A DNA stretch of 64,000 nt from Flaccisagitta enflata (GCA_965153355.1 OZ231126.1:2914001-2978000), one strand, 5' to 3'. Counted from the stretch's first letter, positions 399-40,257 are shown. Notes: generated by a model not told the origin, from the sequence alone. Program-made: numbers and translations.

Positions 399-3300
399 AG
401 ACTATGAAAACAGTCTTGGAAAAAATATGTCCTTCTTCAATGGAACGTACCAACCTACTGTCCGTGTATTATTGCCTCAATGATCTATTCGACGCGTGAG
501 TTCGTGTTGCCGATTTGTTTACATTTTTTGCTTGATTGATTGTTCTTTTAGTCTGAGTGATTCATTGTTTGATTTTTTACCGTGTGTTTTTGTCACTGAT
601 TGATTTCTTTCGATTGTTGTGTTGGTGTGAGTGTTAAGTGTGTTGGTACGAGTGTTAAGTGTGTTGGTACGTGTGTTAAGTGTGTTGGTACGAGCGTTAA
701 GTGTGTTGGTGCGAGTGTTAAATGTGTTGGTGCTAGTCTTGGTGCAAGATGTGGGCGAACCACCTGTTCACAAAATGTCAGTCAGTGGCCATTCATTGCA
801 ACGACATAATTGACAGCTTGGTCCATCCACGGACAGCTTGGTACAACTGACTGACTGATTGGTCCATCAACTGACTGCTTGGTGCGTCAATTTAAACTGA
901 CTTGTCTGGACCAACTGACTGCTTGATCAGTCAACTAACTGCTTGGTCATTCACTGACTGCTTGCGCCGTCCATCAAAGGAATATGGAGGAATCACATTT
1001 TGCTGATTTCTCTCTCGCGCGCGCGCATTCACATTTCCACTTCTAGCAAGTTTTAAAAAAGAATTTTAATGATAAACCGATTATGAAATCTGAATTTCCT
1101 CTATGCCACTCTCATGACATTTTCTTCAACTATCCGTGTTTATAGCATGATAATTTTTTTATCTTTTAGAGGTTTAATGTAACGAGGTGAAAACGTTTTA
1201 TGTTAAACTAGATTATTTAACAGTTAGTACAGGTCATGCCCCTTTAAACGGTTATTCACTGATTGATCTATTTGTTTTCTGATTCACTGATTGATTTATT
1301 AGTTTTCTGTTCGCGTTTTTGAATCCGCGGTGCAAGGGGGAGGGGGTGTTCAAAGGTTGTGCTCAAGTTTTCTCTTGTTTATAAGTCGCGCAGTAGCTAC
1401 TAGCGACTCTATGGAAGTCTTTGTCTGTCCTTCGGTCGGTCCGTTGCTATGTTGGTCCTTAATGGACAAATTGAAAGGTGTACAAACGAGCATTTAACAT
1501 GCTGCGCGCGTGTTGGGGGACGTGGAAAGAGTTGTGCGTCCCTGTCCACCCGCCCGCGACGATATTGTAACCCCGCGTTACTTGTTGACAAGCTGCAGTT
1601 GAGACGAAGTAAAATGGCTTGGGAAGACTTTTTAGGTGCGACAAAGCACCTCTATAACTGGCTGTGTCCGTTGGTCGTTTGGTCGATTGGTCTGTCTGTT
1701 GGTAACGCATTTGTTCGACGATCCACACGTCGCACCTTATTGGCCTACTTGGCCTTGTTTTTTCCTTATCAACATTTACTAATAATCATTTTTTCTTTAA
1801 ATCAAGTAGAGCATTTATTTGTCATTCTTTGCATCCTTCCCAATTGATCAAAGATCATGTCTGTTTTGTTTTGTTTTTTTTCTCATCATGTTTGTTAATT
1901 CTAACACACACAACTTTTTGTGTGTGCTTTTCATGATTTTCAACTTTTCACTTTTTTGTATCATGGTCAATAAGTATATTTCCATTGACTGTTTATTATC
2001 CATGTTTCCTATTTACAAGTTGTTATAGCACGAATTTTTCGCAATAACAAGCGGTTTAGCATATGGGAAACTACTGATTTTTTTATCTAATGTACTGTCG
2101 ACTTGGGAAACTATTGATTTTTTAATCCTATGTACTGTCGACTTGCTTCATGGCACATTCGGGAGTGTCAATATGCAAATGTTTTTTTTAAATAAGATTT
2201 TATATTAAATAATATTTTAAATTAAATTTCAAATAATTTATAATTGTTAAAATTTGATAATATTAAATCTTTATTTAAATTTCCATTTATATATGAATTT
2301 CATTAATTTCATAATAAATCATAGTAATAATGTAATTAAAGTATATAAAGATTTTGGTACTTCTGCATATTAACACACCCAAATAACACATTTTCAGTTG
2401 CGGCTGCGCAACTCTATACGAGGCTTTGTCCATCCGTTGGTCCATCCATCTGTTGGTCAGTCAGTTGGTCCAGGGTCATGTAAACGATAAATGTAAAAAC
2501 GAGCCTTATAGATAATTCTTGAGTGTGGGAGTTGGGGTAGGGAAAAAGGGTTGGACACCCCTGCCAACCCGTCCGCAATAATGTTGTAACCCCGCGTCAC
2601 TTGTTTGAAAGTGAGTAGGGGCTGTGGTTATCCAGTGGTTTGAAATTTTATTATGTAACGATGTCCGACAAAATCATATTGTTATTACAGAAAGTCATTA
2701 ATACTACAAGGATGCATTCAGATATTTTTCAAGTATAAATCAGAAATTTCCAATAACGCTCAAGACACTACAGTATGTCTATCGCTCATCTACAAGAATC
2801 AAGTTCACTGTAGCAAAATACCAGTGGTATCTAATCAATGGGCCGCGTTTAAGCTCAGCTGCCACTGCTATATATATAACTGATCCTAAAAGAGTGAAAT
2901 CTATCGTTATTATCATCCAATCCATCCATTTCAAAGTGATTCAGATTCTTTGTTATTCCCCCCATTTCACAACCCCCCCCCCAAAAAAAAAATCTTTAGG
3001 TTTTATTATTTTGAATTGATAAATAAACTTTTGTAAAATTTGCAGTAGAAGCTAATTTGGTCGTAATTCCCAAATTATTACTACTACTAGTAAAATATCA
3101 AAAGGAATCCATTATCTGATGTTAAAATTGACGTTAAGGACTAATGGATGAACCTGATAAATCTTAGATGAAGATTAGTTGATGTTACCTGTTTGTTGGG
3201 AATCCTTTGGTCATCGTTAGCTTAGCGTAACAAGTTTTTCTCAAAGGCCGATTTTTCTCTGTCTTTTTTGATGTCATTAGAATTTCATATACTGAACTAT

Positions 3301-4337
3301 TTCCTTTTCATGATTTTATCCTGAGACCAGTCAAGCAAATCAGTATGATTTACTAACAAGCAATCTGGCATACACTTTTTAGTCGCGTGCACGCGACTCT
3401 ATAACTTGTTAATCAGTGTCACCATAAGCTTACTCGGCGTTTAGAGGCGATACTTGCATGACTGCTCCTGCCTTAATGCTTTGGTTAGCCTTTTTATCGC
3501 TGCCCCTGCCCACTCGCACGCGATTTTGGTATCCGTTCATCCGGCCTTGTAAGGCGCGTGCACCAGTCGTTCTTTCGGTTCACTGGCATGGCAAGTCCGT
3601 TACTTAATCATATTGCAAGTGGTATCTGCATCAATGCCACTGCCCAATTGTTAGCTACCAGGTCGCAAGAAGTGCCCTTAGTTAAGCATGCCAATCGACC
3701 TCTTCCCCGAAGTTGCTAGTTAGGCCATTCAATAATGCATAGCACAAGAAACGAAAATAAAACGAATCAATTAAAACGAATAAAATCGCTTATAATTTAA
3801 CAGGTTAAAAAAAAACCACAAGAAAGGCATTTTAGTGAAAGAGGAAAGGGGGGGGGGGAAAGAGATGATTCGACTAGGCAGTAAATTGTGACTTGATAGG
3901 GTTGCGCCACTTCTGACGCAAGGCCCAGTATTATCTAATGTGAAAGGTATATATATATCTGTTAAAAGGTGCAATCATTTCACTTGTCAAAGTTTTTCAT
4001 CGTAAATGATTTAAAACAAATCTGAATACCCTAGACAGCACAATCGATAGTTCACATTCCATTTCCACGAAACATTAATTACCATTAATACGGATTAATA
4101 ACAGCGCCGCGGATAGGCGCGGATAAAGCTCAATTGGGACACCGAAACCCGAAGGAACAATTACAATTATAATTGCTTCTTGTAATTATCAAAAATCCCA
4201 ATTTGTATATCTAGACCATATTAATCATGACGGTTCCTATATCCTTTTCTCGATTAAGAAACGCTTTATCCACTGACCGCATTAACACTGAATGTAACAT
4301 TTCATTTTTAATTGCCTAATACTAAATTAACAGACCG

Positions 4338-5310
4338 ATGGACGAACTAGCGGACGAATGGACAAACCAGCGGACGAATAGACAAACCAGCGGACAAATG
4401 GACAAACCAGCGGACGAATGGAAAACCAGCGGACGAATGGACAAACCAGCGGGCGAATGGACAAACCAGCGGACAAACGGACAAACCAGCGGACAAATGG
4501 ACAAACCAGCGGACGAATAGACAAACCAGCGGACAAATAGACAAACCAGCGGACGAACGGACAAACCAGCGGACGAATGGACAAACCAGCGGACGAATGG
4601 ACAAACCAGCGGACGAATGGACAAACCAGCGGACAAATGGACAAACCAGCGGACGAATGGACAAACCAGCGGACGAATAGACAAACCAGCGGACGAATGT
4701 ACAAACCAGCGGACAAATGGACAAACCAGCGGACAAATGGACAAACCAGCAGACGAATGGACAAACCAGCAGACGAATGGACAAACCAGCGGGCGAATGG
4801 ACAAACCAGCGGACAAACAGACAAACCAGCGGACGAATGGACAAACCAGCGGACGAATGGACAAACCAGCGGACAAATGGACAAACCAGCGGACAAATGG
4901 ACAAACCAGCGGACAAATGGACAAACCAGCGGACGAATGGACAAACCAGCGGACAAATGAACAAACCAGGGGACGAATGGACAAACCAGCGGACAAATGG
5001 ACAAACCAGCGGACAAATGGACAAACCAGCGGACAAATGGACCAACCAGCGGACAAATGGACCAACCAGCGGACAAATGAACCAACCAGCGGACAAACCA
5101 GCGGACGAATGGACAAACCAGCGGACGAATGAACAAACACGCGGACGAATGAACAAACACGCGAACAAATGGACGACAAACCAGCGGACAAATGGACAAA
5201 CCAGCGGACAAATGGACAAACCAGCGGATAAATGGACAAACCAGCGGATAAATGGACAAACCAGCGGACGAATGGACAAACCAGCGGACAAATGGACAAA
5301 CCAGCGTACA
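4338..5310. repeat. 20-bp minisatellite (ggacaaaccagcggacgaat)n, roughly 45-50 units
   Basis: Direct tandem repeat; only ~4 units at the paralogous site 45403-45480. Explains all the long repetitive ORFs here. Confidence 0.95.
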
Positions 5311-5516
5311 TATGGATGACTGGACGGACAGGATGAGGCTTTATTCAGACATGCGCATGGGCGCATCAAAAAATGGTTCACTAATTTTATAAGTAGTATA
5401 ACGAATGGACGAACAGTCTAACATTCAATAATCATCCATTATCAAGTCAATCAAAAAAGCGACTACAAATGAAATATAATAGTTTGTTAACAATCGCCAT
5501 ATATAACTTGATTACT

Positions 5517-7420
5517 CTAGGACCAGAGGCTGGGCTTCATCTGCCAAAGCATCAACGATGCTTCGTTAGTCTCTGAATTTTCTAGTCTTTGTCTCGATCC
5601 ATTGATGCTGCTGCTGCCACTGCTGCTGCTGTTGCTGTTGCCACCACCACCACCAAAGGCGCCGCCACTACCACCACCACTCCCAAGGGTGGCGTCACTG
5701 TCATTACCGTTATACCAAGAGCAATAACCATCTCCGCCGCTGACAACGAGAAAGGTTCTTTCCTCGAACGACGCCGAAACGACGCCGGCGGCGGTCACTT
5801 TCTTACGGCGCCGCAGCGAATTCGGATCGGCGTCACTCGTCGACTGAATCGAGGATGACGTCATAGAGGCGTTCATTCGATTGTTGCTGTTGTTGTTGCT
5901 GTTATTTCTAGTTCCAGCGCCGCCGCTTGAGTCACCAGTTATTACAAGTTTATTACTGTTATTGTCGTTTTGATTATTATCACAAGGATTAACGAGTTCA
6001 GTTTGACGCCGACGAGAAACGGGTGAGTCTGAAGCCGTAGAAGCGGAGAGAGTGACGCCGTCGGAGACAGAGGACAGAAAGCGAGGATCGGAAGCGGAAG
6101 CGGAAGCGACGCTGCCGACAGCGGAAGCGGGTTGATGAGGAATGGCGGAGGCGTTGGAATGGTGAAGATCGACCGAGTTGGAGGATTCCGACGCTCGACG
6201 AGAGTGCGTCGTCGAGGAAGATGGAATGCGTCCTCCACCGGAAGTGCCGCCGGAAACGGGATAATCGACGTCGACGTCATCGTCGACGCCGTTGCCGCCG
6301 ATAAAGTTTTCGGACACAGTCGGCAGCAAAAACGGCGAAGGAGGCACGCTGCCGGTGAAGCTAGTTTGTGACACGACGCTGTCGACGCGGCTCGTCCTCG
6401 CCGGCGCCTCGACGCCGCCTCCGCCGCCGGTGCGGGAGGAGGAGGAGGCGGCGGCGGCGGAAGCTCGTGATGGCGTTGGCGTGGAGGCGGCGGCGACGAT
6501 GGAAGGCGGCGTGGAAATATCGGAAGCGACGGAAACGGATCGTTGACTGGAGTGGCCGAAGTGTCCCATCATGACTGATTGAGAGAGGATGGACTGACGC
6601 GCTTTACGGATCGACTGACGAGCGTCTCGGGCTTTATCGCGGGCTTTCTTTTTGACAGTGGAATAAAGAGAAGCTTCGTTGCCAGACGCGGCGCCTGTGA
6701 GTGGGGAAGAGCAAGCGGGAAAAAGAGTTAGGTAAATTGTAAGGCTCAAACTCATGTGATTGAGGGGGAAATGAGCAGGTTAGAATGAGGTGAGGTTTGC
6801 TAAACGACACAATTTCATCTCAAAAGATCGAATCAAGTCAACTGCAGGCGCAGTAAAGAATCCAAAAGCCCACCCAAGCTGTTGCGATGCTTGTTGCGGT
6901 GGTTGTTGTTGTTGTGGTTGCTGTTGTTGTGGTTGCTGTTGTTGCATGTGGTGGTTGTTGTGGTTGTTGTTGCTGTTGAGGTTATTGTTGAGGTTATGGT
7001 TGAGGTTGTTGTTGAGGTGGCTTTTGTGGTTGTTGTTGCCACTCCATGAAGTGGCAGTTTCCCAATTACCATACGCTAGACGTTCAGTAGGGGTTCCGTT
7101 CGGTCTACCAAAATTCTTGGCAGATTTTTACCTTGAGCGGCGGCTGGTTTGACGGGAGCGCCTCTGACGAAGGCGTCTTCGGAAGCAGCTCCTCCTCCTC
7201 CTCCACCTCCTCCTCCGGCCAACAGATTCTCGTGCGATGAGCCTCTCCGATTGTTGAACTGATTATTCAAGAGTGCGTCGTTGCACGTGGCTTCAGCCGC
7301 CTCCACGTCCAACACGGCACCTCGCATTAATGACTTGTATAGGAAGGAGACGTCTCGTTCACCAGGACGAGGTAAGACGTCGTCTAATAATGCCGTGAAT
7401 GAGGCGCGGGAGGATGAGTG
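5517..7420 (-). pseudogene. 5'-truncated ARHGEF10-like copy (partial exon 7420-7132 and exon 6694-5517)
   Basis: Same protein as 48558-48267 and 46849-45681 (...LVVSGGDGY...LMLWQMKPSLWS*). Donor CAAG|gtaaaa at 7132, acceptor tcacag|GC at 6694. Homology breaks ~23 nt inside the penultimate exon and no upstream exons are visible. Confidence 0.7.
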
Positions 7421-8882: not shown

Positions 8883-10080
8883 TTAAGTCTGAGTGGAAGA
8901 AGAAACTGGTCGCTGCACAGGCAGGAGAATATCTAAAGGGCTGCGGTAGGAACGATTTACTTTACGTTGACTCGGACTTAGTATTATCTGTAGATTCTCA
9001 GCTTCCTTTTCTTTTACAAGCTCCGAGACAAGCGGATTACTTGCCTTCATCTTTGCAATTGTTCTCCTGCCTAGTTGAAGCAGGCGATCCTTTATGGTAG
9101 GAAGACAAGAGTTCTCATGTAGGAGCTTCAGACTGACATACCTTGGTAGCCGCAGACAAACCCGGATAGCCTTGTTTTGCACCTTCTGCATTATGTCAAA
9201 CAGATCATTTGGACAGTGAAGGAAGCTGATAGATCCATATTCAAAAATTGATCTAATATATATTTTGTAGAGTCGCAGTAAAATTTTTGGTTCGGTCCTA
9301 CCCCATGCTAATATTCTAAGGATATTCAGCCTTTTTTCCGCTCTTTGGGCTAAAGTCTGAATATGATCTCTGAAGCTGAGGTTGTTGGTTACCTCAACAC
9401 CCAGAAATTTTGCCTTAGATACTGGCCTCACTACATCATTAAATAGGAGAATGCAAAGATTTTCATTTTGTTTTTTCCTTTTTTTGCTGAGAATGACCAG
9501 ATTTGATTTGTCACCATTTAACTTCATCCGCCACTTTCTGCACCAACTCTCAATTTCATTTACAGCCCTTTGCAACTTTCGGACAGCAGTCATCTCATTC
9601 GGTCCAGTGCAGCATATCGCTATATCATCAGCAAATTGGAACTGAGAGGCTCCATTATTTTCACCAGTTGGGAGGTCATTCACAGATATGATGTAGATGA
9701 GTGGGGACAGGCAGCTACCTTGAGGTGTCCCAGCCCTTAGGTTGATGACCCTGGAGGAGAGCCCATTTTCAACTACTTGTAGTGTTCTATCTGTAAGAAA
9801 TGAGCTGAGAACTCTGACTAATCTGTCTGGGAGGCCAAGCATTTTTTTGAGTTTGTATCTGATGCTATCGTGCCAACACTTGTCAAATGCGGCTTCTGCA
9901 TCTAGGAACAAGCTAGCTGTGACTTCTCCTGCTCTAAAACCTTTATGGGTCTCCTCGACAAGTCTCAACAGGTGGTCTGAGCTCATTTTACCTTTTCTAT
10001 AACCACTTTGGTTTTTGTTAAACATTCCCTGACTTTCAAGGAACTTACTTATCCTGCCTGCGAGCAGTCGCTCACAGGCA
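8883..10080 (-). mobile_element. 5'-truncated non-LTR retrotransposon (LINE) reverse transcriptase
   Basis: RT motifs NQSGYR, LFLDAEAAFDKCWH, GTPQGSCLSPLIY, QFADD, KFLGV, followed by YIRSIFEYG...QNKAIR. The ORF begins where YRPISL would be expected, with no endonuclease domain. Probable 3' UTR pieces recur at ~7600-7713, 7937-8020 and 8811-8880. Confidence 0.9.
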
Positions 10081-11718
10081 GGAACTGATCTGTCCATCCA
10101 TACGTTCGTAATTCTCTCTCTGCTGCTCCTTTCTTATTCTCACATTTTCAATCTTAGGAGCATTGGGTACCGCTGACCATCAAATGATTTTGTGACTATT
10201 CCTTCCTATCTTCTTGCATTCTCCCTCATATTGAGACTATTTTGCCACTATTTCCGGTTTGATACTGACCACCGCCAATTCTGAATTATCAATTATTATT
10301 ATTATCCAAACTTAGCAGTCAGCAAGGTTCAAGGCTAACCATTTTCTGCAAAAAAAAACACGCTTACAAGCCATAGTTTCCGGTTTGAACAGAATAATTT
10401 AATGAGAAAACAAACAAAAAATGAGTTGGGACTACAGCATTTCATGCATTAGGGCGTGCGCTCGTAACGGTTCCGTCAAAGCGGGTCTACACTGTACATG
10501 GATTTGGATGCACCGTGCACGGCAAATATTGAAATGACAGAAATTTCGCCTGATTGCTACTCGAAAAAAAAAAGGCATTTCATTTCTTCTATACATGACA
10601 TGGTAAATATTTTAATGCAATGCACAACATCGATTAACTTGGCAACTTCATTGCCAAAGTTGAAAATGAACTATAAAACCGGGTCATTCACCTCAGTTGT
10701 CGGATGCTGTCCTGCTTTATTTGTCAAAGTTGCTAGGAACCATTGATTGACTTTTTTTTTGTGTCAAAATTCCTTCACGGTGGGTCAAATAGCTTGTATT
10801 TTATGCGGATTTGAAGCAAAATCTTTGTTTTCTTCGCGGAGCAAAATAGACATTCGAATTAAGAAATTTTCCCTCCATTATATCTCCATCACAGATACTA
10901 TCTAGAACATATGTTTGTCGGCAAGCATTGTGGGACATATCTCTCCTCAAATAAAGAAATTTATATGAAAGTCAGTGAGATTCTGAAACTACATCAAATT
11001 TCTGAGCTAACGCCACCACCCGCATTCTTCTATCTCAGTTCATTTAGAAATGACAAGTAAAACAAGATTGCTACTCCAAATACAAAATGGCAGAAAATAT
11101 GAGATTTCATTTCCTTTCAGTTACGGCACTTGGGAAAACCTCATTTTTCAACCATTTCAGGATTTTTTTTGCTGCTTGAGTGATGGCAAAGAGTAGTCAT
11201 ATCATGTCTTCACTCCCTCTAAACCCGGTCTCTTGACAGATACTTTTATGGAGACAGTTACAGAGATGGGAGCACAGACCATAAAGCATGGGCTGAAAAA
11301 AATCTGCACTCAAGTTGTGAAGGGAGATGGTGTCATTCTACTTCAAAATACCTCTACAAAAGCGTATTAGTTTAATTAATGAAATACGTTGATGTCCATA
11401 AGACTCAAAGAAAGTCTCACATGTGTCTCATTGATGTTTTCTGAATGATTTGATGGATACAAAACCTGATTCTAATCTTGCCGACCAGGTGATAAAGTGC
11501 TCAGTTACTAAAAAAAGATAAACCTTTAAAATCCATGATGGTTTCAAAGAGCTTCAAAATATCTTTTATGTAAGCTTCCACAGAACATTGTAGCTTCAGT
11601 ACTTTAGAAATTATGATGCTTTAAAGACAACCACTCAGAAATCTCAAAAGGATTCAAAATACTTCATTTTCACCTAACATTTTGTACCAGTAATTTGATT
11701 TGTTTATACTACCGAATA

Positions 11719-12313: not shown

Positions 12314-12818
12314 TATATTAAACACAGAAATTTGCTTTCATTGGCGATCAAGAAAATGGGTGTTGAACTTCAATCTTATGTCATTTGAAAACGACTTAAG
12401 CTAGAAAATTTTGCTTGGCCTATAATTGTAGTTTTTAAAGCTCTTTAAAATACTTATGAATTATGAACATGAGCAAGAAATCACTTCACTGCAAGAGCTT
12501 AGTTTTGGGGTATAGATGGAAAATATTTTTTAGGGAATAGATGGAAAATATTTTTTGGGGAATAGATGGAAAATATTTTTTTATGGTTCTTACGGTAAGC
12601 TTTTTTCGCGCTCTTTTTCTTTCTATTTTTCAGCGGACTTTTCTATTCATAGTTTTCTTTGTTTACAAAAGAAATCAAGGAGTAGAATGCCATGGAAACC
12701 ACCGGACACAACTCCATCAAATGCGTATGAGAGAAAGTATGAGAAGTTTCTACCTAATAAAAAACTGAGCACTCCATATTCATTTTGGCCATTGTTAGTA
12801 AGCAATCGGAACAAGTGT

Positions 12819-13516
12819 TCATAGTTGTGTCGCGAAGCCTTTCAGATATTTCAAAATTGCGTTTGTGCGATTCATTCTTTCTTTTTCTTTTTCTATTTGT
12901 TCTTTCGTGTTTTCATAAACGCGCAGATTTACAACGGCACATGAACTATGAAATTTCTCAAATAAACTTCTTGAATCTCTATCGAGAACCACACGAAAAG
13001 CGACGTCCTCGTCCTCTGATCTGCGCCGTGACCATGTCATGAAATGGTTTGCGCTAAGTTTCTTTCGCTCTTCTTCCGTAAGAATATTACCCAAATCTTC
13101 TATGACGATTGGTTTTCGATCAACCGCGTCAACGGTAATGGAATACGCGGTGGCGAGTTCGTCCAGTTTCTCAGCGACATCTGCCCGGAGTACGGGAATC
13201 CTTTCAACGGAGTTGCGGCTTCCCACTAAATAGAATTATGTACATCAATAGTGAGGATTTTTCTTGGTGATTTTCAGGGAAAATAGGTAGATACATCAAA
13301 ATGGTGAGAAATGAGTAAATTCTTGGTGTAATGATAATTATATGATCTGATGCATGAGGACAAAATCTTTGTCATTGAAGTCGGCTGAACGAAATGAGAC
13401 ATTATCTAATCGACAGCAAAACAAAACAATGGAAACCACTTCAAGGATGATAATAGAAACAAAAACACATGAAAGTAGGATATGGAAAAGCAGCAACAGG
13501 GTAAATGATGAGAATG

Positions 13517-13583
<67 letters not shown>

Positions 13584-15841
13584 CGACAACAACGACAACA
13601 ACAACAATGACAACAACAACAAAAATAATTAACAAAACTACCTCGGGATTTTTGTGTCATCCCGCATTTATCCATTTGTTTAGCTGTTTAGCTGTTTAGC
13701 TGTTTAGCTGTAGCTTAAAGATAAATTATTCACTCACTGATCTCATTGGGGATTTTTATGACGGGTATGGGTCTTAGGAATGGAAGGAAATTCATTTGAC
13801 ATCAATATTGAAGGGTCTAGTTGCGCGCGATTTGATCACAATATGCAAATGAGATTTCAATGATTTTTGAAAAATATCAGATAAACTGACTATAGCAATT
13901 TCCCCATGATATGTCATAAATGCATAATGCGGAAGTAAAATGTGCACTACAAAATATTCTGTCACTGTATCATTGCTGCAGAGGTTAGACAATTGTGCAG
14001 ATGGTTGTGGTGGACAAGGAGGAGGAGGAGAGAGAACCGGTAAATGTGTGTTTTTATCAATTTTGGCCGGTGTCACTCTTTTCTGGGATTGAAAGTGGAG
14101 CAAAGAGCTAAATTGATGATTTTACCATGAGTGAATACCTTAATTTACTAATCAATCGATAGAACAAAGAATGTACAGTAGATGTCGTCTAGACTTGGAA
14201 ATACGGGGGAATTCATTACAGGAAAACAAATTTACTTAAGAGACTGATATTTGGAATATAGACTAATAAAAGGATGCTTTGTTGCCCATGGGTGTTGGTT
14301 GCTATGGAAACTCATTTTCATGTATTCACTCTAAAGTATCAATATTTTGAGGGATCATTGTTTGAAAGAAAATTTGCCACAACTTTCCCACAGTATGTTC
14401 TGTAAGAATATTGCTCGTTTCGCCGTTGCTAGGGAGCGTAACTATGTGTTACAGCCCTGTGATGCTCCCTAGCAACCGCCAAACCAGCGATATTCTTACA
14501 GAACATACTGTGGGAAAGTTGTAGCAAATTTTATTTTAAATAATGTTCCCTCAAAAAATTTCTCAAAAAATTGATGCTTTAGCGTAAATACATGGAAATG
14601 TGTTTCCATGGCAACTAACACCCATGGGCAATAAAGCATCCTTTTATTAGTTTATATTCCAAATATCACTCGCTTAACTTAATTTGTCTTCCTGTGATGA
14701 ATTCCCCCGTATTTCCAAGTCTAGACAACATCTACTGTATGAATGAATCAGTCAATGAATTGATCCAGGTATGAATGAACAGAAGATTGAATGATTGGAT
14801 GAATAAATGGACTTTCCATTCCATAAATATAGTGCAGGTGTGATAAACCACATCTCAGACAAACGACGTCTAGAGAGAGAGAGCCTAGATTTCCACATTA
14901 GTTGTCTTTACATCGGTCTTCCCAAGTTTTTTTTTTCTTTTCTGATTTATTTAAGTATCCTAATTGAGGCAAAAAGTTTTGCTAATGTCTAAGCCGAAAG
15001 ATTTGCTTTATGGACGCCACAAATCCACATGTTACGAAAAATGTGCGAATCTGCATCATCTTCTGATCATCATTCGCAGGTGGTTTTGATATGATCTTTT
15101 TATTTATGCGGAATATTGACACCCCTGACGCACTGAGCACCATGAAAACCTCTAGAATGACTTCACCGTAACTCGCATTCCAGATTCATGGCCTGGAACG
15201 TACGTGAAACATCAAATTAAAGAGTTGGAGTGGAAAAATGTAAACGGCGGATTGTAAAAAAGGTCGTTAGCAGGCCAGGAACTACATGTTTGAATCAAAT
15301 TCTATCAATTAGAGTGATATCTGAATGTATTTCTTAAGAAAATCTATGTTTTATCACATTCTGAAAAATAAATCGGAACACGGTATGAGCAAAAAATCGC
15401 CTACGACATTCTTTTTTTCGCTTTGTCACCAACTTAAAAAGGCAAGTCAATTTTGTGAGATGAATTCATCGACTTTTAAGCGAACAAAATAAAAACATGT
15501 CAGCAAGGCCAAAATTCGACCTACACAGTCTATGGACATTACAGTATTTGTAGATATATCAGCAGTTTAGTATATCTCAATTCATTGAAATCTCTTATTC
15601 TAGCGCATTTTACCCCGTTGAGATCTCTCATTTTGCTAAGATGAATCTTATACATGAGAGATCTCAACGCGTTGAAATTTACCAAAATGAAAGATCTTAA
15701 CGGGTTGAAATATGCCAGAGTGAAAGATCTCAATAGGTTGAGATGTGCCAAACTGCTGATATATCTACAAATACCGTTTTGTCCACTGACTGTATAGTTT
15801 CATTCCTGCGACTGAGCCTGTTATTGCGCGTGGGCAAGAGA

Positions 15842-15922
<81 letters not shown>

Positions 15923-18900
15923 GGAAAATGAAACTTGCCCGATTTTGATCAATTTCAAGCCAACAAAAAAAACGACACGGACAGACTGACGGACGGACCA
16001 ATGGGCCAACGGACGGACAAAGGTTCTTATAAATATGCGAGGACGCATCTAGAAATGCAAACATGCCGTTTTGGGTCCTTGAATCCCGCAGATAGGGCCT
16101 ACAGGCAATCATGAGCCTTCTTTTTTAGATGCGTCCTCGCATCTCTATGATAGGCCATGTCCGTCTGTTGGTTGGTCGGTCGGTTGGTTACGACGGCGAG
16201 CATCTGAAGGTAAGATTTAGTGTGTCAACAGGGGTCAAAATGGAAATTTTCATGAGAATAGAAATGAAAAATGACTTTGAAAAAATCATTGTAGTATATC
16301 ATGGTAAATATTTAATTGCAAAATTTGCATTCAAATTGAACAAAAGAGCAAGTATTGACACCATCAACTTAAAATATTCACTAAAAAATTTCCAGAGTTT
16401 TATATTTGTTCACTGATAGGAGGCTTGTTAAAATTATATCTTTGCATAGAAAATAGAAAAATACAAAAATGAAGAACATAGCCGCCTCCGAAAATTGATT
16501 AAAGAGGCGGCTATGTTTTTGAAAATGCAAAATTCCTCTGCATTTGAGTGTCTTATAATTTTAACAGCAGCAATTGGATAAAAAGTGTAAACAAAATTTC
16601 AGTAAAAAACTTTTTTTCGTTGCTTTGCTTATGTGAATTGCTGATTATAAGGTTCATTAGAGGTCAGCATATGACAAAGACATACACACAGTGTGTTTCT
16701 GGGGACAATTTGTCTCTTGAAAATATTTTTGGCATCATTATTATTCAACTATAGTTGAAAAAATGTGGCGAAACACTAAATGTGGCATCAAATGCTCGCC
16801 GTCTTACGCATTCGTCCAAATCGAAAAATCCACGATATCTTTACAGAATATTGCATCATAAATATCATATGCCAGAGGTGTCACGATTTTTTTCTTTACA
16901 GAATCGACCAGGTCGATCGAATCATGGTCGATTCAAAATAAAATATCGACTCAGTATCGACCACAGGTCGATTTTTCGCCAGTTTGCCCTCTTCCCATAT
17001 AGAAATGCTGTTTACTGTTACAGCAACATGTTTGAGAAACCACTCGGTATCACAAGATGGAACATTTGGGATTTTGACCTTTGCTTTGTAGATATTTGTA
17101 GTCGATAGAAGAACAAGGCCGGATACACGGCAATCCAGTCGCGGACGGTTGGGCAGGAGCAGTAATGCGAAAAACCGCTCGGAATTCAAAAATGTGACGG
17201 ACGGACGGATGGACCTACCGATGGACCTACCGACGGACCTACCGACCGACACGGCAAGGTGTAGAGTCGCGTGTCCACGACTAAAAACAATATTGTTGAG
17301 GATGGGTGAGCAGGGGCATCCAACCCCCATCCATACCCCAACCCACCCCCAACACTCAAACATCCACAAAAAGTATCGAAATGCTCAATTTCCCACTTTT
17401 CAACTATCACCATGATAGACGGACAGATGGACGGACGGACGGATGGATGGACGAATGGATGGACGGACGGACGGACAGACGGACGGACGGACGGACAGAC
17501 GGACGGACAGAGGGACGGATGGAGGGACGGACAGACGGCCGGACAAACAGACGGACGGATGGATAGATGGACGGATGGACAGTTGGACAGACGGATGGAC
17601 GGACAGACGGACAGATGGAAGGACTGAGGGATGGATGGACCAATGGACCTACAATTGGAGAAAGCCTCTTAAAGAATTACGTGTTCGCAACTAAAAAGAG
17701 TAGAGAAGCACTCATTGGGAGCAGGAGAAAACTCTGCTTAAAGCCGAAGGTATTTTATTTGTTACTTAATCTAACTTTTTTTTTCGTAATTGAACAAGGC
17801 GACATTGAGCGCGCTTGTTAGTTTTTTTAGATGCTGACAGTCAACTCTATCAGAGGCTTTGTCCGTCCATCTGTTGGTCCATCTGTTGGGCCGTGACGCC
17901 TGAGTTAAAAACGCATAGACATGCATTTACGATTTATGAAGTTGCTCTTTATGCATATCAATTTGAGGAGGGTGTCAGCAAGCCCCGTGAGGCTTGACTC
18001 AAGCTCGAATTTTCTCGCCTCGATTCCATAGTTTTCTGCACATTTCCATTTTAAACAAATGATTTTTTTGATTGTTTTCAGTTCATTCATCATTCCATTT
18101 TTATTCATTCAACATTAACAGTATTCGGTTTAGCAAGCATATTTCTTATTTTAAATCAGAGATCAATCTCATTTCTAAATTTTTGCTAGCTTCCTTTGTG
18201 CTAAAAAAAAAGAAGAAAAAAATTGACCCGATACACTTGTCATTTGGTGAATCAGGAAGATTATTTAGAAATGTTGAAAATCGACCCGATTAATCATCTA
18301 GACGATATCAGATGTGTCATAATCATCATCATCGTCAACATATTCGTCATCATCATCTTCATCGTCGTCATCATCAGCGTCGTCGTCAAAGTTGTCATCA
18401 TCAGCGTCAACGTTACAATCCACATCGTTGTCATCTTTCATCATTATCATCATTATCAGTTTTTTAGATGCGTCCTCGCATCTCTATAATTGGCCGTGTC
18501 CGTCCGTTGGTCAGTCGGTCGGTCGGTCGGTCGGTCATCACCATCAACATCATCATCATCAACACCATCATCCCCATCACCATCATCATCGTCATCATCG
18601 TCGTCTTTGTCTTCATCATCATTATCGTCCTCATCATCGTCATTGTAGTCCTCATCATCATTGTCGTCCTCATCGGCGTCATCATTGTCATCATCGTCAT
18701 CATCATCGTCGTCATCATTGTCATCATCATCGTCATTGTCGTCATGTTACACCTTATAAAGTGAGATCGTATAAAGTAAACCTTATAAAGTGAGACCGTA
18801 TAAAGTAGACCTTATAAAGTGAGACCGTATAAAGTAGACCATATAAAGTGAGACCGTATAAAGTAAGACCATATAAAGTAAGACCCTATACAATGAGACC

Positions 18901-21900
18901 ATATGAAATTAGACCATATGAAATTAGACCATATAAACCAAGACCGTATAATTATAAAGAAAGACCATATAAACCAAGACAAGACGCATCTTTGAAATAA
19001 GAGCAGTCATTTCAACACCTTTTTAAGAATAAATAAAGTAGAATAGTTTAAATAGAAAATATCAAGTAAGACCATAGAAATGAAGACTATGAAGTAAGAC
19101 CCATATAAAGAGAAGAGGACGCATTGTTGGCCTATCTGGCCTTGTTTATTCCCTGCCCTCTCCTGCCCTAGATGATAGTGTCTGTACAGATAGATTGGCA
19201 CTTCATTGTCACAAAAGAGAACAGGTTGACCAAGGGCAATATGCGGTCAGCGATTACCATTGCCCCGCTTTGTTTGACTTTGTATATGAGTGGGGGGAAG
19301 CAGGGAAGCATCCTTGAAAAGGACACAATCTTGTAGAACACATTGGGACTTTCATTCATTCGTCTGTCCTCCCACTCATCCATGATTTGAGGCCTCTTAG
19401 AGTGGAAATCTGGGAGGGATAATAAAAGGCTTATTAGGGGCCTTAGCCACGCCACGGGGAAAACCTCTGCAGGCTGTATTAAATACTCGGTCTTAATGGC
19501 TATTGGTTTCGTCATCAGGAAGACTTCCTCTATCTGTTTCCATAAGAGTCAAAAGAAATGCGCTTCAAAATTTGTTTAAAATCAACAAAATGTGCCTCTA
19601 CAACCATGTTTTTTGCCATGAGTCTTTTCACATTAAAATCTTAAAAATTTTGATTAAAGATTCAAGTTCCTGGTAAAATTTCCAATTGTTTGATAGGTCG
19701 CACTATATAGTTTTACTCAAAAATAAAAAAATCCAATTTTCTCTCAACACATGACAACAACATTACTAATATAACAACCAACAGTGATGTAACACAAAAT
19801 TGAACTCTTTTGTTTCTTGATTAAAGCATGTAGTGCGACATATCAAATGAATGGAAATTTTTCAAGGAATACGATTCTTTCACAAGAATTATAGATGGCT
19901 TCAACCAATCAACTTATCTTGCAAAACATAAAAAATGTTAAACATTTTGTTGATTTAAACACAATTTTGAAGGAGAATTTTTTTCTCTGTGCTATGAAGT
20001 GATATAGTAGACCTTCCTGAAGCCCAGACCAGTCACCGTCATGACCGAGCATTTTTCTTGACCTATGAAAGCCTCCCCCGTAGCGTGTAGCAGGCTCATT
20101 CAAGGCCTGAAAGGGCTGATTTGAGGCCTGATTTAAGTACTGAATGGGCTGATTTGAGGCTTGAGAGGGCTGAATTAAGGCCCAGGAGCCCTGAGATGCC
20201 TAAGAAGGCGAATTTTAGGGCTGAGGGACTTGGTTTGACGCCTAAGAGGCATGATTTGAAGCCCAACAGGCCTGTTTGAGGTCTGTGAGACCTGAATTTA
20301 GTCCTGAGTGGCTCAATGGGGGGGGGGTACAATTGGAAAAACAAATTGATGAAAGGACAGACGCTTGAACAAGTCCTTGACCCTGTTTGTTCAAAAGGAC
20401 TTCATTCCCTTTGGAGCCGCTGCCCAAAAAAACTACTGAAAATGCCAATATTTTGATCGTTTCTGACTGTTTTGACCCTCTTCGGAAACCCTAGATGGGC
20501 CCCCTTGGGAGTTCCCAGCCTTAATTTGTGTACCCCACCACCAGATACACCAGATAACAGTATGTTAACATAAGAATTACAGCTCCATTAACCTCTCAGG
20601 AGAAATCGCGACAAAAATCTCATTATTAATCATCATTTTAGCTAACCATGAGGACCCCTAAAGGGGCCCCTAGAGGCTACTATTATCTATTTCTTAAAAC
20701 TTCATATTCTACTTCTAAATAATGTTCAAACAAGACCAATACCAAGGTTTTTCATTAATCCATTTATTAGATTAAAAAACCCAGGTGAGTCATAAATCAA
20801 ACAGTTCTTCACATTTTTGCGAATCTTACCTTGCTAATTCCAACCTAGGCAATCGACCTTCTACCTTACATGTTGTAGCTAATTCAGGCAACAACAACAC
20901 AAGTTGAAAAATCCACGAATCTCTTTTGCAACTTGTGGTCAAATCGCGCGCAACTAGACCATTGAAATATTTGCTAAAACTGTCATGGATTACTTCCTAA
21001 AGGTCTAAACTGTAAGAAAAATCCCCGATGGTAAAGGTGGAAACAGTTTTCATCATTTAACTACAACCTGTTTACATCAACAACCTGTTTACATAAACCA
21101 TAAACAAAGAGAAACAAGATTTTGGAAACAGTACAGTGGGGTTTGTGGAATAACAGCCTAAACTGGAGGAAGGTATTTAAGTGTCTTAATTTCATTTAAC
21201 AAATTTGATATTTAGATTATAAGTTGTTCACTTGATGCTTTTGTCCCTGAGTTTTTTGGTTGCTATGGAAACCAAAATTATTTTTTTGAACATTTATAAC
21301 AACTAGAATATCGATATTTTGACAAATATTATCAGGGAACATTGCTCAGAATCAAATTTGCTACAACTTTCCCACAGTATGTCCTGTAAGAATATTGCTC
21401 GTTAAGCCGTTGCTAGGGAGCATCATTCAGCGGTTGCTAGGTGTGATGCCCCTTAGCAACGGCCAAACGAGCAATATTCTTACAGAATATACTGTGGGAA
21501 AGTTGTTGTAAATTTAATTTTGAGCAATGTTCCCTGACAATATTTCTCAGAATATTGATATTTTTGTGGTTAAAAATGTTGGAAAAAATAATTTTGGTTT
21601 CCATAGCAACCGAAAAACTCAGAGACAAAAGCATCAAGTGAACAACTTATATTTCAAATATCAAGTTTGTCAAATGAAATTAAGACACTTAAATACCTTC
21701 CTCCAGTTTAAGCTGTTATTCCACGAACCCCACTGTACTAACATTTCCACCGCCGTTACAATGCGTCGGGATGAAATGACAGGAGCTAACACTAGAACCA
21801 AAATGACAGTAGCAACAATCTACTATGTCTTATTAAGTGCAATCATTCAGGCAAGATCTAGTTGACTTACATTTCATTATCTCCTCGGTGCCGTGAAAGA

Positions 21901-22764
21901 TGAAAAGAATGGACGTTGTAGCGCGTGTCAAGGCCCTGACGATACATGAGATACGATACAATGCGCTGACGAATTGTACCCCATCGACTATGACGGCGAC
22001 TGCGGGCCACTGAGCGCCGAGTGGATGAAATGAATCGCCTTCAACTTCGAACGTGAAATCATCCCGAATTCCATCCTGCTGCAACTCGTCCTCGATTCTC
22101 TCTCTGAGCCGTCGATGACCAGAGACCATCACAAGGATGCATCCAGCTGGACGCGAGGGAGCAGCCTCGTGAAACAGAGCATGTAACGCTGTGAGAGGAG
22201 GAATTTTTTAGTCGCGTACATATTTTATATCCCTTTTTTTCGATCGCTTGGTCGGTCGGTCGGACTATCCATCTACCAAACTCCGTTTTACTTTTAGTTT
22301 TAGCGAGGTATGCGTGTCATATCCCAGTCACTGCCTTTATTTTGCTCCAGTGGCACCTGCTGCATTGCCTGTATCCACCCACACGCGATTTTAGGCAGAC
22401 GTGTCTGTCTTGTCATTTTCGCTCTTCATTAGTTATTTTATAGTGTTAAGGATATGATACAGTTGATACAGTTGCGCTCCCCTGCAACTCATCCGAAAAA
22501 AAAGAAAGAAATCCGCCTGTTAGGGTAAGCCGTAAGGTTTTTTTTTCAAAATTGCCTCTGGTACTCCAGGTGATCTGGGGTGAGATTAAACCGGGGGGTT
22601 GCTCGGGGTTGAACCCCAAGTCAACCCCGAGCTCGGGATTTTCTCAGAGTTGCTCAGGGTTGCTCGGAATTTGCTCGGGGTTGACAGAAATTATTCAATT
22701 ATTCATTTTAAAAACGCACAGCAACCATAACAACAAGAACAACAACAACAACAACAACAACATA

Positions 22765-22831
<67 letters not shown>

Positions 22832-25427
22832 CAATTCTGAGCCAACCCCGAGGAAACCCGAGCAACCCCGAGCTTGGGGGGCTCCTGATCAGGATTGGGC
22901 GGCTCCTGATCAGGATTGGCTACAGACGGACCAACCGACCAACAGACATATTGAGTAATAGAGTTTTGTACACGCGACTAAAAACATTGGTGCCACATGG
23001 AGTTGTCAGTTTGGTTCTTGATTTTGTTTTGCTGATATCGTTGTTATTTACGAAACATTGAAAAAATACTCCATTAAAGAAAAGCATCAATGGAAAAAAT
23101 AACCTGTCAGCTTTTTCACGGTTGTCACGAGAAATTTCTGCTGTTCGTCCCACGGCGTTGTAACTTCAATGACATCTGGATCTAAACCTTCGATAGTGAC
23201 TCCAACAGTAGGTGGTAATTGACGTAATACATCTGAACCTTCAAAGTTGGGATAACCTGCGATAAACTCAACCAACTTCCGCGTTGCTCTGAGGGAAAAG
23301 GAAAGCCGATGGTACTCAAATTTGCGACCATGAATGGAATTTAGGTCTTCGAGGATATGATTTTCATGAATATCATGATCAGATGAAAAAAGGACGACAT
23401 TTTGGCTAGAAGCAAAGTTTTTGACAAAATCACTGATTTCAAAACTTTTAGCCTCGTCGAAGAGAATCAAATCTCGACTAAACCAACTGTTCTTATCCTC
23501 ATTCTCAGCAAAATACTCATGCTCAGCTGCATTTTCATGCCCGACCACCACTCTGTCGCGTAAATTGGGATCTTCGTAGACGCGACGCCGAAGTTGCTGA
23601 GTCACCACTTTGTGCAATAAGTCAACGCGGATGAAGACTTTCTTCTCCGCGTCGTCCACGATTCTCACAAATTCGCGCGCCATCTCAAAGAGAATGAGAG
23701 TCTTACCAGCGCCAGGCGGCCCATGCACTGTTGATGAAGAAAGGAGTCAACATTATCATTTTCAGAAAACAAAGAACGAAAGCGTCTATCATTATATTGT
23801 CATTCTTATTGCTAGCCGACCGGACACTAATTGCAATCGTTGAATGCAAGATACATGCACAAATATGGATGCGATCACTGCACTAATGGTTGGTGTTATC
23901 TGGCTTGATGGCCAAGTGAAAGAACAATTACATTGTGTACAATATGCACACTTTTCAATGATGCCTACCCAAGAGACTCAATGGTTGCCTATTTCGAAAC
24001 GCGTCGCGTGCCACCTCCATGATCCGATGTTGTTCTTCTGTAAACATGGCAGCGTTTGATTTGCCCCATTTTTGATCATCCAATTTCTCGTGAAGGAGCA
24101 GATTTTCATTCTGGAGACGATTGAGCATCACCAGCTTTGCTATCAGGGGCTTCGCCTTTGATGACTCCATTTTAAGTGTTGACCTTCTCTTTATCTCCTC
24201 TAGACGATCTCGGATTCTGACTTTTTCTTTGGCCAATGCCGACCTATCTGACACAGCCACGTGGATCTTTCCGATGGCATCGACACTGACTTCCCCAAGT
24301 TCCGCCAACATATCGATTTTCTCGTTTATTGAACGGAGGTTGCCTTCGCTGGTTTCGTCAACTTTGTCAAACTGAAAAATGACACAGCCGACTTCTGGCG
24401 AAAAAATAAGAATGTCGAATGCCTGTTTCCAAAATGCGGAAATGCCTTCGACATTTGACGCCGGCATGGATGCCAACTCGAGAGCCGTTTGGACCCTCTT
24501 TGGCGTGAGATTGGTAAAAATCACACTCCATCCATCTTTTCGGGCTCTTTTCCTGCTCGTTGATTGCTGACCCTTCAATTCCTTCATCCACCGGAGGACG
24601 CTGATGTAAATCTCCTGTTTATACTGCTCTTCTTCGCCACAAACTTGACCGTCATGGGAATATTTTTTCCCCAGATATGCCATAAACTGCTCGCATACTT
24701 CTGGAATTTCCGTTGGATCCTGACGAGCGAGACTGGGATACATAGTCAAGAGATGCTGAGCGACTTCCGGATTATCAATCGTGACTTTCCGGCCAGACGT
24801 GCCAGGTAAACTGAATTCAATCGCTCTGCATTGTGTTAGTCGATCAAACTGATTTTTTGCATCTATCGAAAACAACTGACAATTGGTAGAAAACAAATGG
24901 TACCTTGGTTTGATGCTAAAATTGTTTTCGTCAATGTCAAGAAACGCGCCGATCGTAATTGGAGTCGCGTCTCTTTTGACGAGGTATTGGATATTTGTCA
25001 CATCCAAGTGCGAAGGACCTATACGGCCACAATACGGCCTCTCTTCCTTTTTGGTGCCGATGACATTAAGACGATACTTGGTTACATCTTCTTCCTGAGA
25101 GCCAATCTGAGCGAGTATTCCTTGAGGTATCTTCTCTATGGTCACAAAGTGCGCAACGCCTTGTGGATCTTTCAGTGTGACTTCGACGTATTCGTGGCAC
25201 AGACGCCAGCCTCTGATTTTGAAACCCATTAACGGTGTAGGAACTAGATTTAGCTTGGATTCAAAGATGGAGAATTTTTCAATCACTCCTTGGTTGGTCA
25301 ATTCGGCGAGCTTTTCTTTGAACTCTTTTTGTGTGCCCTTGATGCAGGTTTCGATGTTGGCTTCTGATTTCGAACGGAAATCAGCGATTCTGAATACATA
25401 TTCAGCTCGTCCAAAGTATTGACTCAT
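12819..25427 (-). CDS. ~935-aa multidomain protein: permuted papain-like (PPPDE/LRAT-like) N-terminus, degenerate NERD-like segment, SF1/Schlafen-like P-loop helicase
   Basis: Exons 25427-23969, 23727-23104, 22188-21871, 13225-12819; all introns GT-AG phase 1, total 2808 nt in frame. Splicing restores Walker A LLVHGPPGAGKT. Also Walker B LILFDEAK, LSFSLRAT (motif IV-like), GAQWPAVAVI (V-like), RALTRATTSILFI (VI). N-terminal CHEYVEV...HFVTIEK...YHLFSTNCQLFS. Extra exons in the 8.6-kb intron cannot be excluded. Confidence 0.8.
14176..14737. mobile_element. Foldback MITE (~560-bp near-perfect palindrome), TA TSD
   Basis: ta|cagtagatgtcgtctagacttggaaatacgggggaattc ... gaattcccccgtatttccaagtctagacaacatctactg|ta; arms pair to the centre near 14455. 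Confidence 0.9.
15542..15776. mobile_element. Small MITE with ~28-bp TIRs and internal ~43-bp tandem units
   Basis: cagtatttgtagatatatcagcagttt ... aaactgctgatatatctacaaataccg; internal gagatctcaacg..ttgaaat repeats. Confidence 0.7.
17111..17697 (-). mobile_element. Two adjacent Helentron-associated (HINE/DINE-like) non-autonomous elements
   Basis: On the minus strand: TTTTTAG + short hairpin (tcgtggacacgcga; ttgcgaacacgtaa) + (GTCC/GTCG)n microsatellite; the 17111-17287 copy ends ggccttgtt. Confidence 0.6.
18460..19146 (+). mobile_element. HINE/DINE-like element with internal (CAT)n and ~21-bp (ataaagtgagaccgt) tandem arrays
   Basis: Starts tttttagatgcgtcctcgcatctctata + (cggt)n and ends gacgcattgttggcctatctggccttgttt. 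Confidence 0.6.
21134..21735. mobile_element. Foldback MITE (~600-bp palindrome), TA TSD; inner core shared with 14176-14737
   Basis: ta|cagtggggtttgtggaataacagc ... gctgttattccacgaaccccactg|ta; shared core caactttcccacagtatg..ctgtaagaatattgctcgtt..gccgttgctagggagc. Confidence 0.9.
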
Positions 25428-25686
25428 CTTCTTACTGTCGGTAATCGTTTGCTGTTGCAATGAAGTAGAATCAAGTGAAATCGACTTAGGATACAAATCG
25501 CGTAGAAACTATTACGTACATTGACGCTTGTAAATCTTTTGCCAGTATTGGCCAGAAATTATGATTCAATCAGGAAATACCACGTGGCATGGCTGCAGAC
25601 GTGCATGGCTGCACCTTGAAAACCGGTTTTCAAATTCAATTGGAAAATAACTAAGCAATGCCGGGTTTGAGGCAGAAAAAGAAGAC

Positions 25687-26964: not shown

Positions 26965-40257
<13,293 letters not shown>

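Follow-up and report, generated by a model that had tools for sequence, protein, structure and literature searches.

The locus considered here lies in a stretch of 64,000 nucleotides of the genome of Flaccisagitta enflata (GCA_965153355.1 OZ231126.1:2914001-2978000), hereafter the window, and holds a minus-strand gene that spans positions 25427..12819 (Table 1). A first-pass annotation, made from the sequence alone, had described it as an intact four-exon open reading frame for a fusion of a permuted papain-like peptidase, a degenerate NERD-like fold and a superfamily 1 (SF1)/Schlafen-like helicase. Read directly on the minus strand, the joined exons give 935 codons with no internal stop, all three introns are GT-AG introns in phase 1, and every motif quoted in that annotation was found in its place. 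With a slash at the exon boundary, the donors of introns 1-3 are TTGG/GTAGG, ACAG/GTTAT and AAAT/GTAAGT, and the acceptors are ..ATCAACAG/TG, ..CTCTCACAG/CG and ..TCTATTTAG/TG. The ATG at 25427 is the first one downstream of an in-frame stop. It is supported as the start by five relatives in the family alignment (P0006, P0008, P0011, P0012 and P0013; relatives are cited by such numbers below), which begin within a few residues of it. Since exon 1 sits inside a 517-codon open frame and has 24 relatives, the best of them at an expectation value (E) of 6.6e-60, the gene is far beyond chance. A tblastn search of the 64-kb window revealed no second copy of it.

Table 1. Features of the gene, of its predicted product and of its surroundings, in positions of the window
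Feature	Position	Strand	Remarks
Exon 1	25427..23969	-	486 codons + 1 nt; head, middle domain, helical lead-in to ATPase
Intron 1	23728..23968	-	GT..AG, phase 1
Exon 2	23727..23104	-	ATPase N-lobe with Walker A, Walker B, SLRATRKL
Intron 2	22189..23103	-	GT..AG, phase 1
Exon 3	22188..21871	-	ATPase C-lobe with GAQWPAVAVIV and LTRATTSILFI
Intron 3	13226..21870	-	GTAAGT..AG, phase 1, 8.6 kb, rich in simple and dispersed repeats
Exon 4 (probable)	13225..12819	-	134-residue C-terminal tail and TGA stop
Head domain, residues ~8-235	24723..25406	-	predicted permuted papain-like (NlpC/P60-PPPDE type) fold
CHEYVEV	25199-25179	-	exon 1
His78 codon	25194..25196	-	candidate catalytic His, start of strand 77-86, conserved 17/17
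HFVTIEK	25151-25131	-	exon 1
Glu98 codon (in TIEK)	25134..25136	-	candidate third triad residue; 17/18 Glu, 1 Asp
YHLFSTNCQ	24902-24876	-	exon 1
Tyr176	24902-24900	-	conserved 15/16; Y-x6-C spacing to Cys183
Cys183	24881-24879	-	conserved 16/16; first residue of helix 183-202
Middle domain, residues ~265-415	24183..24635	-	predicted restriction-endonuclease-like fold, no conserved (D/E)xK
FWKQAFDILIF	24434-24402	-	exon 1; Trp333 invariant 16/16; Asp338 at start of second core strand
GCVIFQFDK	24389-24363	-	exon 1
Walker A GPPGAGKT	23722-23699	-	exon 2
Walker B LILFDEA	23470-23450	-	exon 2
SLRATRKL	23296-23273	-	exon 2
GAQWPAVAVIV	22018-21986	-	exon 3
LTRATTSILFI	21931-21899	-	exon 3
OATP/SLCO transporter exon, C-terminal part	37664-38098	+	E 4.4e-21
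Tandem repeat adjoining OATP/SLCO exon	38459-39566
Non-long-terminal-repeat retrotransposon fragment	8883-10133	-	416-codon frame, RVT_1 E 2.3e-27; just downstream of the gene

The relatives of exon 1 were collected with HMMER from 1.84 billion representative proteins, which gave 24 at E ≤ 0.001; of these, 15 reach ≤ 1e-10 and 6 reach ≤ 1e-30. The clusters of ten relatives were looked up; nine come from ENA assemblies and one from Logan. A query with the family alignment returned no relatives of 2303-5000 residues, an exon 1 query for longer relatives scored nothing, and the alignment query for relatives of near length returned only P0025, already in the set. Four relatives, P0014 (1315 residues), P0018 (925), P0021 (988) and P0023 (874), carry head, middle domain and P-loop ATPase in one continuous frame, and their contigs of 2.9-5.7 kb are transcript-sized. 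In the tblastn search 18 of 19 relatives are colinear on exons 1-3, with no match elsewhere in the window. P0007 aligns to exon 1 and, further on, to exon 2 with 35% identity over 213 columns, its residues 422-610 forming the exon 2 part, and residues 740-815 of P0018 match exon 3 (E 8e-4 in the 44-sequence set; tblastn E 0.043).

The junction at intron 1 is read across by P0007, P0014, P0018 and P0023. Three other relatives, P0008, P0015 and P0016, extend past the end of exon 1 with '..LLGK' or '..LVGK', P0008 and P0016 stopping within 4 residues and P0015 running about 20 further, as if the donor had been read through; the position of intron 1 therefore appears conserved across the family. 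The first-pass annotation took the head exon to be joined to the P-loop exon. This joining is seen in the relatives, in continuous frames on contigs of 2-6 kb, rather than in the present gene, for which it is supported because the relatives carry both in one frame. Two of the relatives also have additional domains ahead of the head. UBA_7 lies upstream of it in P0014 (E 2e-9) and P0028 (E 2.3e-12); in P0028 there is also a ZZ match in front of the head at E 0.0023, under the cut-off, and in P0014 a similar Cys-rich stretch is visible by eye, where Pfam made no ZZ call. These UBA/ZZ forms are the only hint to the substrate of the head.

The head contains four conserved residues of catalytic type, His78, Glu98, Tyr176 and Cys183 (Table 1), whose order and spacing agree with those described for the permuted NlpC/P60 and PPPDE enzymes in PMC3142127. 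Other conserved positions of the head are Lys99 (17/19), Asn182 (16/16) and Gln184 (14/16), together with Gly103, Gln107 and Pro208-Gly209. The first-pass annotation had placed two His motifs, CHEYVEV and HFVTIEK, before the Cys. The second of them did not hold up, since position 93 is F, W, L, S, Y, V or K in the relatives; in HFVTIEK it is Glu98 and Lys99 that are conserved, unlike His93. The signature H...H...NC was accordingly rejected, the second conserved residue being Glu98 and not His93. For comparison, the catalytic residues listed in PMC3142127 are His49, Glu64, Tyr115 and Cys128 in YiiX, His49, Glu64, Tyr127 and Cys154 in BcPPNE, and His38, (Glu47), Tyr101 and Cys108 in PPPDE1; there Glu is the third catalytic residue of YiiX and BcPPNE, and PPPDE1 has Phe at that position. 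The spacing of seven between Tyr176 and Cys183 equals that of Tyr101 and Cys108 in PPPDE1, so that the head has both the His upstream of the Cys and the Tyr seven residues before the Cys that characterize a PPPDE enzyme. The head thus appears to retain a full candidate active site, and it may act as a thiol protease or an acyltransferase.

The AlphaFold2 model of the head has a predicted local distance difference test (pLDDT) score of 78.7 and a predicted template modelling (pTM) score of 0.74. In it Cys183 opens the 20-residue helix 183-202, His78 begins strand 77-86 and Glu98 lies in strand 92-100, and the predicted arrangement of the elements is that of papain in permuted order. In the wide VIA search the PPPDE deSUMOylase DeSI-1 (2wp7_A) ranks first of 48,161 chains, weakly, with Z 5.6 (root-mean-square deviation 3.2 Å, 101 residues aligned, 18% identity, model residues 47..196), and is the only chain at Z ≥ 5. 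Further ranks are held by TseH (2), CLN5 (3, Z 4.5), YiiX (6), BcPPNE (8), PLAAT4 (19) and Aichivirus 2A (24). TseH, PLAAT4 and Aichivirus 2A presumably belong to the same superfamily as the permuted papain-like enzymes. YiiX, BcPPNE, PPPDE1, CLN5 and DeSI-1 are placed in the permuted papain-like superfamily in PMC3142127, PMC9012467 and PMC10318531. The match to 2wp7 carries weight because the family had been predicted from the sequence beforehand, and not because of its score. In the VIA search confined to Foldseek's 1000 best chains (pdb_via), 2wp7 is not among the rows and the best row is TseH (Z 4.7). The Pfam family Peptidase_C97 (PF05903) gave no match to exon 1 at E ≤ 1 and matched one of 11 relatives, P0008, over the NC motif only (E 0.022, 15.1 bits vs. 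a cut-off of 29.2); Lnb_N has a weak match at the NC motif of P0021 (E 0.034). On balance the predicted permuted papain-like head is supported, but not strongly: the conserved order of His, Glu, Tyr and Cys and the first rank of 2wp7 argue for it, while exon 1 has no Pfam match at E ≤ 1, Foldseek gave none at E ≤ 0.001, and the second His of the original description was wrong.

The middle domain had been described as a degenerate NERD-like nuclease. Its AlphaFold2 model (pLDDT 69.6, pTM 0.65) has a core in the order helix-strand-strand-strand-helix-strand, in which the first strand is followed by two short helices (helices H and strands E in model numbering: H30-52, E67-72, E102-108, E112-120, H125-143 and E150-157), and GCVIFQFDK forms the third core strand. 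The wide VIA search returned 33 chains at Z ≥ 5, with a moderate top Z of 7.5, and about 31 of the best 50 rows are nucleases or resolvases by title, examples being Can2, BpuSI, Hjc, McrC, VRR-NUC, Cas4, EcoRI and NgoMIV. The modelled alpha-beta-beta-beta-alpha-beta core and the nuclease matches together point to a PD-(D/E)xK fold. The first 6 of the 50 pdb_via rows all show residues ~368-568 of SLFN12 or SLFN14, with Z of 6.5-7.2 and 129-168 residues aligned, the longest alignments among the rows. This stretch is the Schlafen linker domain; in PMC8789055 the linker of SLFN5 is residues 337-552, immediately before the helicase, and its function was then unknown.

At position 338 all 15 of 15 sequences carry an acidic residue (D in 10, E in 5). 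Position 352 is occupied by A,A,D,D,H,H,H,Q,Q,Q,Q,R,R,S,T, and positions 354 and 355 are equally variable. The claim of an inactivated nuclease fits because these (D/E)xK positions are variable, and the NERD label fails because there is no profile match: NERD (PF08378) matched none of the 4 window pieces at E ≤ 1 and none of 11 relatives at E ≤ 0.1. What stands is thus a predicted PD-(D/E)xK fold whose catalytic positions are lost, and what does not is its membership of NERD.

The C-terminal part was annotated as an SF1/Schlafen-like helicase, and PADLOC, Pfam, Atlas and the motifs bear this out at low scores. Exons 2 and 3 hold five ATPase motifs, GPPGAGKT, LILFDEA, SLRATRKL, GAQWPAVAVIV and LTRATTSILFI, which we take to be SF1 motifs I, II, IV, V and VI. 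All five recur in P0007, P0014, P0018, P0021 and P0023 in the alignment, and motifs IV, V and VI have the patterns L-R-[AS]-T, G-x-Q-[FW]-P-x-V and TRAT. Walker A, Walker B and the later motifs, by which an SF1 ATPase is recognized, can thus all be read in the sequence. With PADLOC, exon 2 matches Nhi (2.4e-6) and AbiO (1.6e-5). Among eight relatives AbiO was matched in four and Nhi in three, four had no match to them, and GajB was matched in P0014 (4.3e-4); the best of the relatives is P0023 (Nhi 2.7e-7, AbiO 8.9e-8). The Pfam profile SLFN-g3_helicase (PF09848) also matches P0007 (E 0.012), and it has no match in P0014, P0018, P0021 or P0023 at E ≤ 0.1. Among the Atlas clusters, those closest to P0023 hold bacterial DUF2075/SLFN-g3 and UvrD proteins at 0.84-0.86, which serves as a lead only. 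Judged by its motifs and profile matches, the C-terminal part is probably an SF1 ATPase of the UvrD/DUF2075/Nhi-AbiO kind with Walker A and Walker B intact.

The protein resembles several known systems in part. With the PPPDE/DeSI enzymes (MEROPS C97, PF05903; DeSI-1 2wp7, PPPDE1/DESI2 3ebq) the head shares the permuted order with His before Cys, the Tyr-x6-Cys spacing and an Asn-Cys pair at the start of a helix; DeSI-1 is its best structural match, and the UBA domains of relatives fit a role in ubiquitin or ubiquitin-like (UBL) modification. Unlike them, the window protein leaves the Pfam model unmatched, its best relative remains far under the cut-off and the Z of 5.6 is low. It also has a conserved Glu at the third-residue position, as do YiiX and BcPPNE, where PPPDE1 has Phe according to PMC3142127. 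An extra N-terminal strand-helix unit (residues 8-47) and the fusion to a nuclease-fold domain and a helicase are further differences. In a literature search on PPPDE and helicase (and NERD), no description of a cellular PPPDE-helicase fusion appeared among the matches listed.

The long (group III) Schlafens SLFN5, SLFN11 and SLFN14 have the same layout of an effector head, a globular linker and an SF1 ATPase. The linker regions of SLFN12, a group II member, and of SLFN14 are the best solved matches of the middle domain, exon 2 touches the group 3 helicase profile (E 3.2e-4), and in SLFN5 the linker stands directly before the helicase N-lobe (PMC8789055). In contrast to the Schlafens, the window protein has no Slfn-core (AlbA_2-type) RNase domain, as there is no Pfam match and the fold of the head differs. 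The literal SWAVDL is likewise missing, the conserved motif here being F-W-x3-F-[DE]-[IL]; the helicase profile stays under its cut-off, and by PADLOC the ATPase is nearest to Nhi/AbiO. The latter pair (PDLC02372, PDLC02350) also has a domain of ~190 residues, of nuclease fold here, directly before a compact SF1 ATPase, and provides the best profile matches of the ATPase N-lobe. In the profiles of Nhi and AbiO the ATPase part comes after about 180-200 positions, which, going by the name 'nuclease-helicase immunity', we take to be a nuclease domain. This nuclease part is unmatched, the nuclease-fold domain here lacks catalytic residues, and the gene is a eukaryotic one with introns and an added peptidase-like head. 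Proteins that combine NERD (PF08378) with an SF1 helicase are similar in having a PD-(D/E)xK-type fold upstream of the ATPase and an acidic residue conserved where the second core strand begins; they differ in their profile, which is not matched, and in the ExK positions, which are unconserved here.

On this evidence the reading that we favour, by a modest degree, is that the gene is an intact animal one whose 935-residue product belongs to a small, undescribed family with three modules, namely a putative thiol-enzyme head, a dead-nuclease middle domain and an SF1 ATPase. The domain assignments, taken together, seem to us quite likely. A number of results weigh against this reading. No Pfam family at E ≤ 1 was found for the exon 1 product, and none of the four exon products reaches a curated cut-off, the window protein having been profile-scanned exon by exon in four pieces. 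A sequence search of PDB gave 0 matches at E ≤ 10 for exon 1 and 0 for the family profile; with P0023 as the query it gave only two matches, both at chance level, and an NCBIfam scan returned nothing relevant. The models were built on shallow alignments of 22 rows (head) and 19 rows (middle). With Foldseek neither model has a match in PDB at E ≤ 0.001. The best rows for the head are NTF2/cystatin-like sheets including DUF4783 (E 0.057-0.3), and those for the middle domain are the R2 element protein, SduA, BstEII and cap-snatching endonucleases, none at E ≤ 0.001. The VIA values of Z 5.6 (head) and Z 7.5 (middle) fall short even of the range described by the tool as common among unrelated folds. 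In the ATPase the Nhi/AbiO matches cover only profile positions ~180-356 of 468-470, that is, the N-lobe, and neither exon 2 nor any of the eight relatives gave a full-length match that includes the N-terminal nuclease part. The SLFN-g3_helicase match of exon 2 scores 20.5 bits, under the cut-off of 24. The relative P0019 (665 residues) keeps head and middle domain and has a degenerate Walker A position, followed by a repeated segment; either the decay of a paralogue or an artefact of assembly may account for it. Exon 4, finally, is weakly supported, by a phase-1-compatible acceptor and an open frame of 134 codons.

Exon 4 is also where the best of the alternatives applies, according to which part of the gene model is in error or the gene is silent; the protein may end soon after exon 3, with exon 4 unrelated or part of another transcript. 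If the exon 3 donor is read through, a stop follows after 10 codons. BLAST shows no similarity of exon 4 to the 44 family sequences or, in a separate comparison, to P0014, and no homologue maps to it with tblastn. On the other side, the exon 3 donor has the consensus form, the acceptor of exon 4 preserves phase 1 and leads into an open frame, and full-length relatives continue for 44-140 residues after the last helicase motif. Exon 4 also shows a weak colinear alignment to the tail of P0014 over ~105 residues (z 3.0, with 2 of 300 shuffles reaching the score) and to that of P0023 (z 2.2, 8 of 300 shuffles); the tails of P0018, P0021 and P0030 give z < 1. We regard this alternative as rather unlikely.

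The RNA reads at hand come from one run of a shared study, of which about 6 in every 100 reads were sampled, and have no bearing on the expression of this gene. In this sample 805 reads fall over the gene, all of them partial matches. Exons 1-3 have zero depth, the bin with most of exon 4 holds at most 1-2 partial reads, and the rest lie on repeats of intron 3. Within 12700-25560 a depth of ~10-26 per strand occurs only at 15703-16131 and 18277-18705, both in intron 3. The reads there are partial with loose ends, and the sites coincide with copies of a dispersed element whose open frames share a motif like RPRIS.IG.VR.LV.RSVG and are found also at 1404-1847, 16129-16416 and 18468-18764. The intron 3 reads probably come from copies of this element elsewhere in the genome.

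A second alternative keeps the architecture and changes the chemistry of the head, which would act on lipids as an acyltransferase, phospholipase or depalmitoylase (LRAT/PLAAT- or CLN5-like) and be targeted by the helicase module. The Y..NC motif is common to the LRAT/PLAAT and PPPDE families, and CLN5, YiiX, BcPPNE and PLAAT4 come within ~1-2 Z units of DeSI-1 in the wide VIA search. Lipid-related substrates have been argued for permuted enzymes of the YiiX kind (PMC3142127) and CLN5 has been reported as a depalmitoylase (PMC9012467). However, the top match (DeSI-1) and the Y-x6-C spacing fit PPPDE, the UBA_7 domains of P0014 and P0028 and the sub-threshold ZZ of P0028 stand directly before the head and point to ubiquitin, and no membrane anchor was noticed by eye, no search having been made for one. 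A lipid-directed head is therefore, in our estimate, fairly unlikely.

The head could instead be a non-papain alpha+beta roll of NTF2/cystatin-like type that serves as a binding module, its conserved His, Glu, Tyr and Cys being needed for folding, a metal or a ligand. DUF4783 and NTF2-like proteins are its best Foldseek rows, most rows for residues 8-113 in both VIA searches are NTF2-like or curved-sheet proteins, and no Z of the head reaches the level of trust stated by the tool. Nevertheless, the NTF2-like matches are limited to residues 8-113 and omit the invariant NC helix, and it is the permuted papain-like matches that extend over 45-198. The chain ranked first of 48,161 belongs to the family predicted beforehand from the sequence, and the four residues of catalytic type are all conserved, in the order to be expected. 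Such a roll is improbable.

It is very improbable that the locus is virus-derived, an endogenised polyprotein fragment with a papain-like protease and an SF1 helicase and no host cellular role: PPPDE was named partly for double-stranded RNA viruses (PMC3142127), PPPDE and helicase are mentioned together in several papers with a mycovirus context, and P0018 has a faint Viral_helicase1 match (E 0.053), but the gene has three spliceosomal phase-1 introns with the intron 1 position kept in P0008, P0015 and P0016, no polymerase or capsid lies near it in the window, a search of predicted viral structures with the head model gave 0 matches at E ≤ 0.001 (a Pandoravirus PPPDE protein came no higher than rank 19, at E 0.5), the motifs and profile matches of the ATPase are of the UvrD/DUF2075 kind, and relatives carry ZZ and UBA domains.

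As for the surroundings of the gene, the window contains an OATP/SLCO exon and is therefore animal DNA. Many microsatellites and satellites are scattered across it. A direct segmental duplication of ~6.6 kb, with copies at 105-6701 and 39982-46857, 40 kb apart and 92-94% identical, takes in a Ser/Gly/Asn-rich open frame twice, on the minus strand at 5517-6779 and 45681-47051, for which Pfam gave no match; the gene studied sits between the copies and is itself unduplicated. Tandem arrays at 54584-57614, 34337-36495, 4331-5316 and 29820-30677 have periods of ~107, ~160-170, 20 and ~65 bp, respectively, as judged from self-match offsets. An open frame at 53891-54580 (minus strand), which adjoins a repeat-rich stretch, has a marginal WD40_2 match (E 2.3e-5, 23.7 bits vs. 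a cut-off of 22.5).

If the favoured three-module protein is taken as the basis, its parts may work together as a sensor and an effector. The unit of dead nuclease and ATPase would bind nucleic acid and use ATP, like the linker and helicase of long Schlafens or the Nhi/AbiO nuclease-helicases, and would position or switch the thiol-hydrolase head. The head, whose catalysis and substrate we infer, would most likely remove ubiquitin or a ubiquitin-like modifier. Such a substrate is favoured because two relatives carry ZZ/UBA domains before the same head. In SLFN11, binding of single-stranded DNA to the helicase domain activates the N-terminal RNase, according to PMC13056530. We hold the coupled mechanism only tentatively, at a little less than even confidence, and an immune role would be plausible by analogy. 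A bolder proposal, and a rather doubtful one, is that the family represents a branch, so far unrecognised, of the nucleic-acid-sensing immune proteins of animals. It would follow the Schlafen plan, with the linker and SF1 helicase as the sensor, but with the tRNA-cutting head exchanged for a cysteine peptidase of the deubiquitinase/deSUMOylase type. Foreign or damaged nucleic acid would then be sensed, the readout would be the editing of ubiquitin-like marks and not the cutting of RNA, and the ZZ-UBA forms would dock on ubiquitin chains.

Defence proteins of bacteria and animals are often made by swapping effector heads on a common sensor module. The present family is a case of known folds in a new combination, and at the same time a new divergent family, which adds two domains without a Pfam model (head and middle) out of three. 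A sensor-type module of linker and SF1 helicase appears here in animals with a different head, a predicted papain-like thiol enzyme, which some relatives tie to ubiquitin-binding domains. The Schlafen-linker-like domain seems to be a restriction fold without catalytic residues, which hints that the linker-helicase pair descends from nuclease-helicases of the Nhi/AbiO kind. If true, nucleic-acid sensing and ubiquitin-like signalling would be linked in a new way that can be tested.

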